NCBI GenBank assembly: GCA_016218805.1
Contig: JACRCW010000078.1
Location: 1 to 38,693, forward strand
Length of the DNA: 38,693 nt
Source: Deltaproteobacteria bacterium
Lineage (GTDB): Bacteria > Myxococcota > JACRCW01
Direction: 5' to 3'
This document shows positions 1-10,924 of this stretch, piece by piece (the first letter of the stretch is position 1; each line of letters starts with the position of its first letter). Position numbers and translations under genes: made by a program. The notes beneath the pieces were generated by a model. That model saw nothing but the letters and a program-made list of their open reading frames with translations. It had not been told where the DNA came from and did not search any database.

Positions 1-284
1 CCGAGCCCGACCCAGGGCCCAAAACCCGCGGCGGTTTCCTCTCGGGTCCAAATATCGTTGTTCGTGCCCCTCACGAACAGAGAACGGTAGCCCCATGAGT
101 CTCGAACGACGACCGGCGGAGAGGTTGCAGTGCCGCCCATGCCGGTTCTTGTCCAGGTACCAAATGGCATCGGCTGGTCCACGCGCACGGTCGCATTGGA
201 TGCGTTCCGGAAGAAGAAGGACACACCCGATGAGATGAGATAGGCCAAACGCAATCGCATGGGGGACCCCTCGGGGTACTGCAT
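1..284 (-). CDS. partial ORF running off the left edge; lectin-like beta-propeller repeat protein (PLL/fucose-lectin-type blade)
   Basis: Manual translation of the minus strand from ATG 284 (or 260): MQYPEGSPMRLRLAYLISSGVSFFFRNASNATVRVDQPMPFGTWTRTGMGGTATSPPVVVRDSWGYRSLFVRGTNNDIWTREETAAGFGPWVGL..., no stop before base 1. GG..tS.P.vv...G...lFVRGTNN.IW...W..L is the typical blade motif. Start uncertain; frame open back to TGA at 432-434. Confidence 0.6.
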   Translation of the reverse strand, partial: MQYPEGSPMRLRLAYLISSGVSFFFRNASNATVRVDQPMPFGTWTRTGMGGTATSPPVVVRDSWGYRSLFVRGTNNDIWTREETAAGFGPWVGL

Positions 285-450
285 GGATGCAGCACTCGCC
301 TCATACTGCAGGCCCAACCCAGTGGAACCGCCCCGATCGGGGGGGTCCGCGCAGCGGAAGGTTCTGGGAACACAACCTGGGACGCGATCAAACCGGTGCC
401 GTGACGCCGTGGGGGTGACGCCGTGGATAGATCAACGCCGGAGGCGCTCG

Positions 451-668
451 GGGTCTGATCGCCCATGGTTGTGGTCCCTGCCGGTGGGGCAGCCACAGGA
501 TCCCAAAGCGCCGAGGTGGTGTGGCACAGCCGCCCCGGCTGTGCCGGTGCATGGCGACGTCACGGGTGTCCCGCTGGCGTCCCGGCCGGGGGCGGCCGGG
601 CCACACCGCGCTGGCGTGCTGGTTGGCCGCAGCAGCGTTGTCGATCCCAGCTCTACAACCACCTCTCA
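451..668. mobile_element. MITE-like element, copy 1 (inverted relative to copy 2; one end decayed)
   Basis: Reverse complement aligns by eye to 10705-10924 with 15 substitutions and one 2-nt indel. End GGGTCTGATCGCCCATGGTTGTGG intact at 451; outer ~8 nt of the other TIR missing; no target duplication visible. Confidence 0.8.
518..607. repeat. inverted REP-like doublet (REPIN-like) inside MITE copy 1
   Basis: GTGG-CACAGCCG-ccc-CGGCTGTG (521-543) and CCCGGCCG-gggg-CGGCCGGG-CCAC (581-604), flanked by GGT/ACC. Confidence 0.75.
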
Positions 669-730
669 AGGGACAGCTTGAATTATCCGGCTTCCGCTTG
701 CGGCCGCTCCCTGATGCCCGGCTTGCCCGC

Positions 731-1435
731 TTACCCCTCCGGCTTGTCCTCTCCACCGGTCCCGCCCTCATCTCCGCCGGTGTTCTCCCCACCCGGCGCC
801 GTCCCACCAAACAACACATTGAGCGAGTACAGCGCCGCCTTGTCCGGGGCCTTGCGGTTGATGACCCGGCCACGCCGGCTGATGGAGAGCAGACGTGCGT
901 ACAGCGCTTTGCTGGCGCGGGCCTTGTCGGCGGCGGGGACCTTCTGTTCAATCTTGCCGGACTCCTGCTTGAGTTCGGAGCTGGTCAGGGCGGCCTGGGC
1001 TCTCTTCACGTCTTCCACCAGGTCCGCCACCATGATGGGGTTCTTCAGTTCCGTGCCATGCTTCTCCAGCATCTTGGCGAGCACCAGGGCCGGGGTGACC
1101 AGGTTGGCGGCGTCACCCGCCGGGAAGTTCATGTTGAAGTAGTTCACCTCCAGCCCCGCGTCGTTCTGGAGGTCCTTGGCCGCATCCCGCGCGGCAATGA
1201 GCTGGGTGCGCGGGTCAGCCTGGCTGAGGGTGGCCACCTTGGTTTCCGCCACTGCGCCAATCCGGTTGGCTGATTCTGACGCTCCAATCTCCACCAGGCG
1301 GTGCGCTTCAACCAACTCCGCTTCTGCGTCCGGGTAGCCCTTGGCCACAAAATCGGCGCGCTGTTCCCACGCCACCGGGGTGAGTTTGAACAGTTGGGAC
1401 ACCAGGTCTGCCTGGGTGAACTTGTGGTCCGTCAC
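731..1435 (-). CDS. hypothetical alpha-helical protein with Gly/acidic C-terminal tail; probably the downstream part of a gene starting near 1559 and frameshifted at 1442-1444
   Basis: 234-aa ORF with protein-like composition and GC3-rich codons; tail GGENTGGDEGGTGGEDKPEG. An upstream frame (DDELLLTADTEPTFDKVLTKLGRR) also looks coding and joins by removing one base. Confidence 0.7.
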   Translation of the reverse strand: MTDHKFTQADLVSQLFKLTPVAWEQRADFVAKGYPDAEAELVEAHRLVEIGASESANRIGAVAETKVATLSQADPRTQLIAARDAAKDLQNDAGLEVNYFNMNFPAGDAANLVTPALVLAKMLEKHGTELKNPIMVADLVEDVKRAQAALTSSELKQESGKIEQKVPAADKARASKALYARLLSISRRGRVINRKAPDKAALYSLNVLFGGTAPGGENTGGDEGGTGGEDKPEG

Positions 1436-1583
1436 CCGAAACCCGCCTGCCGAGTTTGGTCAGCACCTTGTCAAAGGTGGGTTCCGTGTCCGCAGTGAGG
1501 AGCAGTTCGTCATCTCCGCGTCCCGGTTGGGGTTTTGTCTGATCAGCGAGACTGCCCAAACAACCTGCGCGTTGTCCACGCAG

Positions 1584-1806
1584 TGGGAACCCCAAGGCCT
1601 GTCACTGGGAGGGCCAGGAAGTGTCATGGGGGCACACACCGCATGACCTGGGAAGGTCCAAAAGGTGTCATGGGGGCGCACGTGGCATGACATGGGAAGT
1701 CACCCCGGGCTGGTGGGAGGTGGGCTCCGGCCTGGTGGGGAGGTTCCTCCGGGTCCCTGGGTGGGTGGCTACGAGTTGCTGGGATGGGGGTTCCAGGTGA
1801 CTGGGA
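1584..1806. repeat. phased degenerate array, 11 TGGG-anchored units of 21-22 nt
   Basis: TGGG at 1584, 1606, 1627, 1649, 1671, 1693, 1714, 1736, 1758, 1780, 1802; units 2+3 and 4+5 form a ~44-nt higher-order repeat. Confidence 0.8.
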
Positions 1807-1841
1807 GACGCGTCCGCGGCCTGCCTGCGGGCGCCTGCTGG

Positions 1842-4187
1842 CTACGGAATGGTGACCCGCCGCAGCGTGCGCGCCGTGGCGTCATCCGCCACCCAGTAGA
1901 GGAACCCGCCACCCACGGCGATGGGCGGCTGTGCGGTGAGAAGGCCGGGCACCGGCTGCGCGGTGCACGTGGAGGCGGTGCCGGCACCGGTAGCTTCCGC
2001 GACGGTGCAACGGCTCACCGGCTGGCCAGGGGCCCCGGAGAAGTAGATGTGCGTGGCGTCCACAGCCACGTCTGACGCGGGCACGCTTCCGGGTGGGAAG
2101 GTGGCGGTGCACGAGCCCCCCGGGGGCGTACACAGCTCCAGCTGGCTTCCGGAGCGGACCCACGCCACCACGGTGGGGCCGGAGGCGAGTTGCATGAACT
2201 GCAGGTTGGTGACCGGCTGGAAGTAGGGCATCCCGCCACCGGTGGCCCACGGATATTCGAAGACGACGCCCCCGCCCATCCCGGGGACATAGTCATTCCC
2301 CAGCAACAGCGTTCCGCTGGCGCCCTCCTTGGCGGCCAGCGCGCCGGCAAAGCGCAGCGGCGGCGCGGCCGTGGATGGAGTGCAGTTGGGCAGCGCGCAG
2401 GTCTCCAGCGCGGCCGTGGTGCCCGCCGCCGGGTGATCAGACCAGGCCAGTGCGCCCGCCGCCACGGCGACGTGAGCGGGTGCGGGCATCGTCGTGGGCA
2501 CCACGGTGGCGGTGCAACCCGCGGTGGCGGGAGCCTGGCAGAACTGGACCTGGCCGTTGACCACCCACGCAATCCAGTTTCCGTCGGTGGCCAGGTCAAG
2601 TACCGCCGCACCGGCGGGGAAGGTGTGGACCAGCTCACCCATTGCGCCGCCGGAACTGCCCGTTCCCGACGACGCCCTGGCCGCCGAGGACGCGCCGCCA
2701 ACCGAGGACGCGGCGCCGGATGATGAGCGCCCGGTGGTGCTGCTGCCGCCCGCCGCCGAGGAGGACGGCTGCGTGGACGCGGCGGCGGACGACGGCGGCA
2801 GCGTTGAGGTTGCTGCGCCGGAGGACGACGGCGCCGGGGCGGACCGGCTGGTGGAAGACTGGCTGGAAGCGGACGCGCCCGACGACGGCGCCAGGCTGGT
2901 GCCGGACGCGGGCCCCGACGATGACGACACCCCGCCGGAGGAGGAGGAGGACCCTCCGCTCCCGCCGCCATTGCCCTGGGCCTCAAACCCGTCGCAGATC
3001 CCGTCGTGGTCCAGGTCGTAGCGCCGCGGGTCTTCGTTGCTGGGGGTGGGGACCTCACCCGGCTGGCCGCACCCGGCCAACTCTTCCATGTCAAACTGCC
3101 CATCGCCGTCGTCGTCGCAGTCCCGGCTTTCGCACGGCGCGGTGGGGTCCTGCACGCACGCGGCGTGACAGGTCTCCATGCCCATCTGGTCCAGCGCCTG
3201 CAGGTCATCCCCGTCCAGGTCGTTGAACTTGCGCGGGGTGACCGTGAGGCTGATCTCGCGCGGCTCGCCGGAGAGCAGCACGTGCCCAAACGTGATGGGC
3301 AGCCACTCCGGGACGTTGACGTCCACGCGGTACACGCCGGGCACCAGGTCCAGGAACGTGACCGTCTGCAGCAGGTCACCCGCCGTGTCCACCACGGAGA
3401 CCGCGGGTGGGCAGCCGTCCGGCGGGGAGGCACCCAGCGGGCAGGCCGCCGCCAGGTTGGAATCCAACAGCGGCAAGCCTTCACTGGGGGTCGCCCCCGG
3501 CCCCGCGGGCTGATCAAACTGTACGGTCAGCGTCGTCGGCGTGGACACGCACTCCAGCCGAAGGTCACCCAGCTCGGCGGTCTGGCCGGACTCCACGGTC
3601 ACTTCATGCGCGGTGAGAGCGCCGGTGCCCGCCGCCACCACCGTCCAGGTCCACGCGCCCAGGCCGCGCACGGTGAAGGTGCCGTCCGCGGCGGGCACCA
3701 CCAGCACCGGCGTCCCGTCAATGATCACCCGCACGGTGGCCATGTCCACGCAGCCGGGGTTCACCGCCGGAGGGAGGACGCGCCCGTTCAGCGTGGCGGG
3801 GGGCAGCAGGACAATGCGCCCCATGTCCACGCGCGCGCGCTCCTCCTTGCCCGCAGGAACGCGAATGGCCGCCTCCACCACCTTGGCCAGGTCCGCCACA
3901 CCGTCGTGGTCCGGGTCATAGGACATCAGCAGCACGTGGGTGCCCTGGGGCAGGTTGCGCACCGTGAAGCGCCCGTCTGAACGCGTGACCCGTGATTGTG
4001 ACCCCTGCCGCAGCAGCACGCGGCCGCCCGCCAGCGGGCCCTCCTGTGTGGCCCCGGGCGGCGTACCCACCAGCACACCCGTGACGTCCCCCGGTTCCAG
4101 GTCCGGGAACACGTCCTGGCAGTACACGCATCCGCCGCCCACCAGCCCCAGCGCCACCGCCAGCAGCCCATTCCTGTTGCGCAACAT
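1842..4187 (-). CDS. large putative lipoprotein: carboxypeptidase-regulatory-like beta-sandwich domains, DxDxDG Ca-binding-type motifs, Ser/Gly-rich linker, C-terminal beta-propeller-like domain
   Basis: ATG 4187 with GGAGG RBS; MLRNRNGLLAVALGLVGGGC signal/lipobox-like; TRSDGRFTVRNLPQG and PAADGTFTVRGL motifs; DLDGDD, DDDGDG, DLDHDG; long Ser/Ala/Gly stretch. Confidence 0.75.
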   Translation of the reverse strand: MLRNRNGLLAVALGLVGGGCVYCQDVFPDLEPGDVTGVLVGTPPGATQEGPLAGGRVLLRQGSQSRVTRSDGRFTVRNLPQGTHVLLMSYDPDHDGVADLAKVVEAAIRVPAGKEERARVDMGRIVLLPPATLNGRVLPPAVNPGCVDMATVRVIIDGTPVLVVPAADGTFTVRGLGAWTWTVVAAGTGALTAHEVTVESGQTAELGDLRLECVSTPTTLTVQFDQPAGPGATPSEGLPLLDSNLAAACPLGASPPDGCPPAVSVVDTAGDLLQTVTFLDLVPGVYRVDVNVPEWLPITFGHVLLSGEPREISLTVTPRKFNDLDGDDLQALDQMGMETCHAACVQDPTAPCESRDCDDDGDGQFDMEELAGCGQPGEVPTPSNEDPRRYDLDHDGICDGFEAQGNGGGSGGSSSSSGGVSSSSGPASGTSLAPSSGASASSQSSTSRSAPAPSSSGAATSTLPPSSAAASTQPSSSAAGGSSTTGRSSSGAASSVGGASSAARASSGTGSSGGAMGELVHTFPAGAAVLDLATDGNWIAWVVNGQVQFCQAPATAGCTATVVPTTMPAPAHVAVAAGALAWSDHPAAGTTAALETCALPNCTPSTAAPPLRFAGALAAKEGASGTLLLGNDYVPGMGGGVVFEYPWATGGGMPYFQPVTNLQFMQLASGPTVVAWVRSGSQLELCTPPGGSCTATFPPGSVPASDVAVDATHIYFSGAPGQPVSRCTVAEATGAGTASTCTAQPVPGLLTAQPPIAVGGGFLYWVADDATARTLRRVTIP

Positions 4188-10696: not shown

Positions 10697-10924
10697 GGGT
10701 GTGATGCGAGATGGTTGTAGACCGCTGGGATCGACAATGCCGCTGCGGCCAGGTAGCACGCCAGCGCGGTGTGGCCCGGCCGCCCCCGGCCGGGACGCCA
10801 GCGGGAAATCCGTGACGTCGCCATGCACCGGCACAGCCGGGGCGGCTGTGCCACACCACAACGGCTCTTTGGGATCCTGTGGCTGCCCCACCCCCAGGGA
10901 CCACAACCATGGGCGATCACACCC
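10697..10924. mobile_element. intact 228-bp MITE with imperfect ~27-33 bp TIRs and 9-bp target-site duplication
   Basis: Left end GGGTGTGATgcgagATGGTTGTaGaCC; right end (reverse complement) GGGTGTGATcgcccATGGTTGTgGtCC; GGTGACGGG at 10688-10696 and 10925-10933; no transposase; second copy at 451-668. Confidence 0.9.
10768..10857. repeat. inverted REP-like doublet (REPIN-like) inside MITE copy 2
   Basis: GTGG-CCCGGCCG-cccc-CGGCCGGG (10771-10794) and CACAGCCG-ggg-CGGCTGTG-CCAC (10832-10854); arms identical to copy 1. Confidence 0.75.

Follow-up and report, generated by a model that had tools for sequence, protein, structure and literature searches.

Why should a four-letter word recur at an almost constant spacing in the gap between two genes, and what, if anything, would read it? 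The question is raised by a short array near one end of the 38,693-nt stretch of DNA analysed here (hereafter the window), which is contig C31 of a 6.4-Mb genome with 70% GC. The word TGGG starts at positions 1584, 1606, 1627, 1649, 1671, 1693, 1714, 1736, 1758, 1780 and 1802, and the gaps of 22, 21, 22, 22, 22, 21, 22, 22, 22 and 22 given in the first-pass annotation were reproduced exactly. Three more copies, at 1721, 1762 and 1785, are out of phase, and 10 of the 11 units have A or G as their fifth base, directly after TGGG. The array had also been described as nearly filling its intergenic gap; actually, it covers only 222 bp of the 406 bp between the open reading frames (Table 1), this gap being 328 bp when measured from the inferred true start of the neighbouring gene at 1513.

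Table 1. Features at the array-bearing end of the window
Feature	Position	Strand	Remarks
Phased array, 11 anchors	1584..1805		TGGG on the plus strand, CCCA on the partner-gene strand; mean period 21.8 bp
Two related 43/44-bp dimers with short inverted repeats	1609..1696		Arms 1623-1631/1639-1647 and 1666-1672/1686-1692
Weak terminator-like hairpin at the gene-proximal array end	1565..1583	-	Absent from the paralogous array
Partner gene open reading frame, 234 aa	731..1435	-	Belongs to an all-helical family without a name; C-terminal tail of low complexity
Frameshifted 5' end of the partner gene	1436..1513	-	ATG at 1513; homologues P0002 and P0005 have N-termini that match the other-frame stretch
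Flanking lipoprotein-like gene with CarboxypepD_reg domains	1842..4187	-	Stop codon 36 bp from the array

It had further been proposed that anchor and spacing are kept while the unit bodies diverge. This is correct for the anchor and the spacing, and the bodies have indeed diverged (mean identity 31%, expected 28%), but they are not independent of each other. The units of the two related dimers match at 12/17 and 13/17 positions, and the five gene-distal units mostly have 7-10 of 17 positions in common. The bodies are local duplicates with point mutations rather than acquired spacers. Inverted-repeat arms of 7-9 bp are confined to four units of the array. When searched against their own genome, the unit bodies gave counts close to those of shuffled controls, save for two GC-rich bodies, and the window array itself found no match among the 40 related genomes searched. 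A scan for sigma-70 sites returned none, and no RNA run was listed as carrying the locus among public sequencing runs. The G-quadruplex score of the plus strand is moderate (maximum 1.52); this reading was set aside because strand skew differs between loci. Tandem Repeats Finder reported just 2.2 copies for the window array, which makes it unsuitable for a census of such degenerate arrays.

Chance does not produce comparable arrays. In the shuffle control suggested by the first-pass annotation, the longest TGGG chain in 1000 dinucleotide shuffles of positions 1584-1810 was 5, reached in 1/1000, against 11 in the real array. Chains of any 4-mer at any period from 8 to 41 likewise did not exceed 5 in 60 shuffles, and three genome-length order-4 Markov sequences contained no TGGG chain longer than 3. 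Neutral decay was simulated as uniform decay with local duplication, at four local-duplication rates and with the observed overall identity as target. Since four contiguous invariant columns were obtained in none of 16,000 runs, the anchor and its phase are constrained.

The main point of the locus, overlooked in the first-pass annotation, is the linked gene family. The array lies 70 bp upstream of a minus-strand gene (731-1513), hereafter the partner gene, and many homologues of this gene, whose loci in other genomes were chosen by protein alone, also border an array. The own subfamily of the partner protein was found in 6 of 401 genomes, plus two metagenome loci. After duplicate removal, four of five loci carry an upstream array and none a downstream one (upstream z of 9.1 for the window, 8.3 for L001, 11.7 for L008, 5.6 for L012 and 0.3 for L011). 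Five distant hits were devoid of an array in the side test, one of them giving a 43-bp signal with another test window. For the sister subfamily, present in 22 of 401 genomes, 40 matches were listed and 30 treated as loci; removal of three from the own genome and of one duplicate left 26 loci, 25 of which were testable on each side. A downstream array (z>=4) was found in 16/25 of these, upstream arrays and control-lag signals both in 0/25, and no array at all was seen in 9/25, counts that, as for the own subfamily, overstate independence, the loci being kin within one phylum. Within the own genome, the subfamily profile was run on the 5070 predicted proteins, and five of the next six hits border an array, against a background of 167/5070 (P 2e-7). 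Four of the ten strong own-genome members have no array within about 400 bp: one has its array at 820 bp, one has none and two are off the array list. The first-pass annotation had suggested looking among relatives for a plain decaying repeat with no conserved period or gene linkage; what is found there is the reverse, with period and linkage holding where the sequence does not. Collectively, these data show that the array is genuine, constrained and gene-linked.

Anchors differ from locus to locus (CCCA, GATCA, CAAA, CCCGG, TGAGG, GCGAC, GTTAC and others) while the gaps stay at 20-23 bp, and the homologous arrays range from near-perfect repeats to arrays as degenerate as that of the window. 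The closely related loci L011 and L012 have a proximal leader in common, and a clear 21-bp array is present only in L012, which makes them a natural loss/gain pair. Other periods were observed upstream of two sister-subfamily genes, namely 55 bp in L046 (z 22) and 15 bp in L045 (z 13).

Comparison with homologues places the true start of the partner gene at the ATG at 1513, the first codons being out of frame. Contigs from three runs of a single study have identical letters at this place, and the frameshift is therefore no peculiarity of the present assembly. Since the 5' end is broken, the window copy may be decaying, or the array may be served by a paralogue. The gene is frameshifted in three of the five own-subfamily loci, and the arrays persist there. 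In L012 and L014 (the latter being the same locus as L008) the frameshift falls within the first 65 codons, and intact genes are found in L011 and L013.

The partner protein has few relatives, with 11 found at E<=0.001 among 1.84 billion representatives and one and three proteins retrieved by word-index searches. Pfam, PHROG, PADLOC and NCBIfam contain no family for it; NCBIfam PQLLE matches two of 12 family members, with E down to 1.8e-5 but far under its cut-off, and a search for literature on PQLLE found none. Profile comparison shows the own and the sister subfamily to be homologous (hhalign probability 97% over 196 columns, the sister alignment being composed of four of the five array-bordering profile hits and two blastp relatives). 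Ten proteins of this genome belong to the merged family at E<1e-20, and the hhalign probability of the family against eight other array-adjacent orphan groups is at most 17%. The structure model is all-helical, with long helices and no strands (pLDDT 78.8, pTM 0.45). Foldseek found nothing in the PDB at E<=0.001, and a wide structural search returned only generic helical bundles (best Z 9.8). Avd/IVS bundles are among the fold matches (2gsc, Z 8.9, rmsd 2.8 with 93 aligned; 2rld, 8.4; 4dwl, 8.2), at Z values tied with those of unrelated bundles and below the meaningful level for helical bundles. Neither family scans nor the fold search revealed a recognisable DNA-binding domain in the window protein. 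The own subfamily is not basic overall (29 K+R vs 33 D+E), and several sister-subfamily proteins have K/R-rich ends. The conserved columns are L, G, R, F, A and D, without a catalytic pattern.

The rest of the window is a housekeeping chromosome, with genes for a Der-type GTPase, HisRS, CarD and HrcA. Domain scans took in 29 of its 34 predicted proteins, and no transposase, integrase or reverse transcriptase was found among these 29. The lipoprotein-like gene that flanks the array was not seen beside the homologous loci read. In the minus frame 317-3 there is what we take to be a lectin-type propeller repeat, though it has no Pfam match. Positions 451-668 and 10705-10924 are two copies of a MITE-like element, which is non-coding, about 220 bp long and bounded by terminal inverted repeats; the genome has 19 copies of it, many of them located at contig ends and some with flanking duplications of about 9 bp. 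At G000:C9:11520-11703 (L016), a 184-bp fragment of the partner gene, 92% identical, is bounded by an end of this element, and a 48-bp piece matching window positions 1829-1876 lies nearby in permuted order. Contig C23 starts with a sequence 99.6% identical to positions 1-229 of the window, and C23:2305-2522 resembles window positions 229-452.

The window array is not unique in its genome. A collinear copy without trace of the partner gene lies at G000:C161:10726-10945, between what are presumably a transporter-like and a repressor-like gene. In a MAFFT alignment of the two copies, the anchors are identical at 40/44 positions and the remainder at 103/178, a comparison somewhat inflated because the anchors were defined on the window copy. 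Genome-wide, 93 intergenic stretches passed the period score; 28 of them border any of 24 helical orphan genes, which were listed from the same output, and 65 border none. Matches elsewhere in the genome were found for 21 of the 28 gene-linked arrays, a few of them being weak GC-rich hits. In 16 array pairs the homology stops at or near the array, gene fragments being retained in one pair. In other genomes, gene-less copies were found in two of six tests, the four others giving no sister copy. In an unbiased count, 50 of 94 intergenic tandem arrays have a period of 20-23 or 41-45 bp, with clusters at 21-22 and 42-44, and arrays are enriched in convergent gaps (19/76 vs 125/952, p 0.004). Several arrays on contigs C15, C1, C10, C96, C167 and C54 also border what look to us like Uma2-type nucleases, AAA ATPases and DUF559 nucleases. 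Another group of related helical genes, each followed by a phased array, was observed at G000:C54:79327-80079, C133:97251-98000, C19:66243-66962 and C78:6829-7608. One gene of this group has a sub-threshold match to DUF6261, and in a further copy, on C44, the array has survived but the gene only in fragments.

A one-turn rhythm was sought inside the units with seven sequence signals in four bands (28 tests) and column-permuted controls. In one of these tests, purine/pyrimidine power at 10-11.5 bp reaches 8.6 vs 4.3 in controls across 80 genome arrays, with 50 of 80 above control (p 9.5e-5). In the window array the maximum lies at 11.0 bp (p 0.007-0.011), in its C161 copy at 10.75 (p 0.056). 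In other genomes, 6 of 17 arrays reach p<0.05, and the signal is not seen in L008 or L012, the two own-subfamily arrays tested. The A/T signal in the same band is 3.7 vs 4.2 in controls. The one-turn signal is thus modest and after-the-fact, seven signals having been tried, and could alternatively come from units built of an older 10-11 bp duplication.

As the preferred explanation, to which we give somewhat less than an even chance, the array could be a DNA docking platform that is read on one face of the helix by the partner protein. The array would then be the DNA half of a two-part module. A short anchor every two helical turns would place all anchors on one helix face, and the 17-18 bp between them would act as spacers whose length matters while their sequence drifts. 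Because of the gene-array linkage, the neighbouring protein is the first candidate reader. This helical bundle would oligomerise on the array, with each anchor taking one unit, and the resulting compact nucleoprotein patch of about 200 bp could control or insulate transcription at the locus. Each paralogue would have its own anchor, and the gene-less copies would be either extra docking sites or relics after gene deletion. We infer the DNA-acting nature of the reader, its identity with the neighbour and the effect on transcription from this pattern. Of the two possibilities offered in the first-pass annotation, phased protein-binding sites and a transcript cut into small RNAs, putative binding sites agree with the kept period and linkage, the constrained anchors and the one-turn sub-period. 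The docking platform is further consistent with linkage on a side that is kept within each subfamily (upstream in 4/5, downstream in 16/25), with the conservation of anchors in the paralogous copy, with the failure of neutral decay in 16,000 runs, with the K/R-rich ends of several sister proteins and with the site geometry described for sopC (PMC3177203) and P2 C (PMC2995052). On the other hand, 4-5 bp is a small recognition word, the partner has no recognisable DNA-binding domain and its gene is frameshifted in three of five own-subfamily loci even though the arrays remain; most arrays (65/93) are without a listed partner, and 9/25 sister loci and 4/10 strong own-genome members are without a nearby array.

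A broader proposal, which we regard as rather unlikely, is that the locus represents a widespread and undescribed class of modules, in which helical-bundle proteins would each read their own two-turn-spaced word, polymerise on it and dock remotely on gene-less arrays, so that dozens of orthogonal pairs would organise or silence DNA in one genome. Whatever their reader, one in two intergenic tandem arrays of this genome has a period of two or four turns, and such arrays are tied, across a phylum, to at least one protein family without a name. If the proteins do read their own arrays, this would be a new mode of DNA recognition, with a helical bundle moving stepwise over spaced words of 4-5 bp, and it would provide natural orthogonal pairs and a directly testable function for many orphan genes. 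The present locus contributes a protein family of its own, and with it arrays that change side from one subfamily to the other, array copies devoid of the gene and a sub-period of one turn.

The same observations have to be weighed against readings in which the neighbouring protein is no reader at all. An ordinary decaying minisatellite, with a period due to slippage bias and a linkage due to tolerance in accessory islands, would account for the internal duplications, for the many young, near-perfect repeats among the genome's arrays and for the broken partner gene, but its neutral version never combined an invariant anchor with random-like bodies. Moreover, it leaves aside the side-specific linkage (16/25 vs 0/25) and the clustering of intergenic periods at 21-22 and 42-44, and is already disfavoured, to the point of being very improbable. 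Alternatively, gene and array could together form a small selfish unit, the array being the part copied or recombined to new sites, in autonomous and non-autonomous versions comparable to RAYT and REP. The matches of 21 of the 28 gene-linked arrays elsewhere in the genome (a few of them weak), the homology that ends at or near the array in 16 pairs with gene remnants in one, the gene-less copies in other genomes (2/6 tests), the scattered occurrence (in 6 and in 22 of 401 genomes) and the frequent frameshifts all point in this direction. We nevertheless hold it to be improbable: the protein lacks a catalytic pattern, the 29 window proteins scanned include no mobility enzyme of the three types sought, the flanks of the pairs show neither common ends nor target duplications, and a sister copy was missed in 4/6 of the tests made on other genomes.

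It is also conceivable, though unlikely, that the geometry of the array is read by a host factor, such as a nucleoid protein or a topoisomerase (compare gyrase on BIME-2 and other periodic sites), and that the helical genes merely travel along. Such a reader would suit the majority of arrays without a listed partner (65/93), the enrichment in convergent gaps, anchors that differ everywhere and the one-turn rhythm. Pure shape reading, however, leaves the exact anchors and the tight linkage to one family unexplained, and the motif of strong gyrase sites is a 10.75-bp oscillation of GC content (PMC6379681), of which the A/T signal of the arrays shows nothing above control. Alternatively, the array could be transcribed and cut or bound as RNA, with one 21-22 nt unit per subunit, as a guide or scaffold RNA. 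TIGR arrays likewise lie upstream and/or downstream of their gene, and they differ from locus to locus (PMC12045711). A weak terminator-like hairpin closes the window array, and Avd-family bundles occur among the fold matches, albeit with Z values (8.2-8.9) below the meaningful level. Eleven base pairs is also the repeat of A-form helices. The small-RNA possibility fares poorly in the sequence itself: bodies have changed by duplication and point mutation, not by replacement, several homologous arrays repeat almost perfectly, with nothing variable in them, strand skew is inconsistent between loci, folding of either array strand is not better than that of shuffles (z -0.67 and 0.60) and Rfam has no match in window positions 1-2500. 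A search of the array against phages and plasmids, suggested for the unit bodies in the first-pass annotation, gave nothing better than E 3, taken as chance, and we consider the RNA reading quite improbable.

The docking platform can finally be compared with known systems. As judged from tests of membership and a limited literature search, the array-gene pairing belongs to no family tested, and its function is proposed from its organization. The literature searched, mostly at the level of listings, contained no description of gene-linked 21-22 bp arrays; a possible link of Porphyromonas hagB/hagC to upstream repeats was not confirmed there and was not used as evidence. Like TIGR-Tas, CRISPR and VIPR loci, the array has a constant word alternating with variable sequence beside one gene, TIGR arrays occurring on either side (PMC12045711). 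Unlike them, its variable parts are drifted duplicates, its partner has no Nop, Cas or Vipr match, and its period is 21-22, as opposed to 18/36 for TIGR, 60-79 for CRISPR and 5 for VIPR. The single anchor and blank folding signal differ from the TIGR units of 36 nt with dual repeats or stem-loops and box C/D, and Pfam finds no Nop domain in the window protein or in the 12 family members. For CRISPR, whose repeats are long and nearly identical, separated by unique spacers and accompanied by cas genes, the anchor of 4-5 bp, the lack of cas families among the proteins scanned and the blank Rfam search speak against membership. A preprint (bioRxiv 10.64898/2026.10.21.760802) describes periodic clusters at 60-79, 18 and 5 nt and 66 clusters off these bands, with periods of 10, 8 and 7 described; the part of it available does not mention DUF6261. 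Four related DUF6261 (PF19775)-like genes of this genome border similar phased arrays. However, the DUF6261 profile matches 0/12 partner-family members, hhalign gives probabilities of 0.9% and 0.2% between the partner family and this group, and language-model look-alikes (scores 0.86 and 0.88) are leads only. In the literature searched, DUF6261 appears in two unrelated papers, with a single mention in either.

REP/BIME elements are palindromic hairpin units whose partner, RAYT, is a tyrosine transposase. The arrays resemble them in being intergenic, often after stop codons or between convergent genes, and in having both gene-linked and gene-less copies. They differ in their non-palindromic units, in their fixed two-turn period, in forming many small families of 2-7 copies and in a partner without transposase match. 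In iteron plasmids (R6K gamma, P1, F), blocks of iterons lie on either side of rep, the gene of a winged-helix initiator, and these direct repeats are conserved over most of the 17-22 bp unit. The iteron comparison made in the first-pass annotation breaks down on two counts, the partner gene and how much of the unit is conserved: the window partner is a long helical bundle without winged-helix or HTH match, the core is just 4-5 bp with bodies near random identity, and the array stands in GC-rich surroundings on a housekeeping chromosome. The likeness that stands is that direct sites without a palindrome recur at intervals of about 22 bp next to a cognate gene, as in iterons and in the operator of P2 C, whose direct half-sites are 22 bp apart (PMC2995052). 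The type Ia partition site sopC has its sites at 43-bp spacing, or four turns, on one DNA face, each with a 16-bp inverted repeat (PMC3177203). Unlike sopC, the array has no 16-bp palindrome but inverted arms of only 7-9 bp in four units, its anchor is a direct repeat of 4-5 bp, it is chromosomal and one genome carries many unrelated anchors. No ParA or ParB was found among both neighbours and 27 other window proteins, the contig ending 730 bp past the partner gene. Like sopC with SopB, it is a chain of sites on one face, with whole-turn spacing (mean period 21.8 bp), beside the gene of the presumed binder, and part of it consists of 43/44-bp dimers with short inverted repeats.
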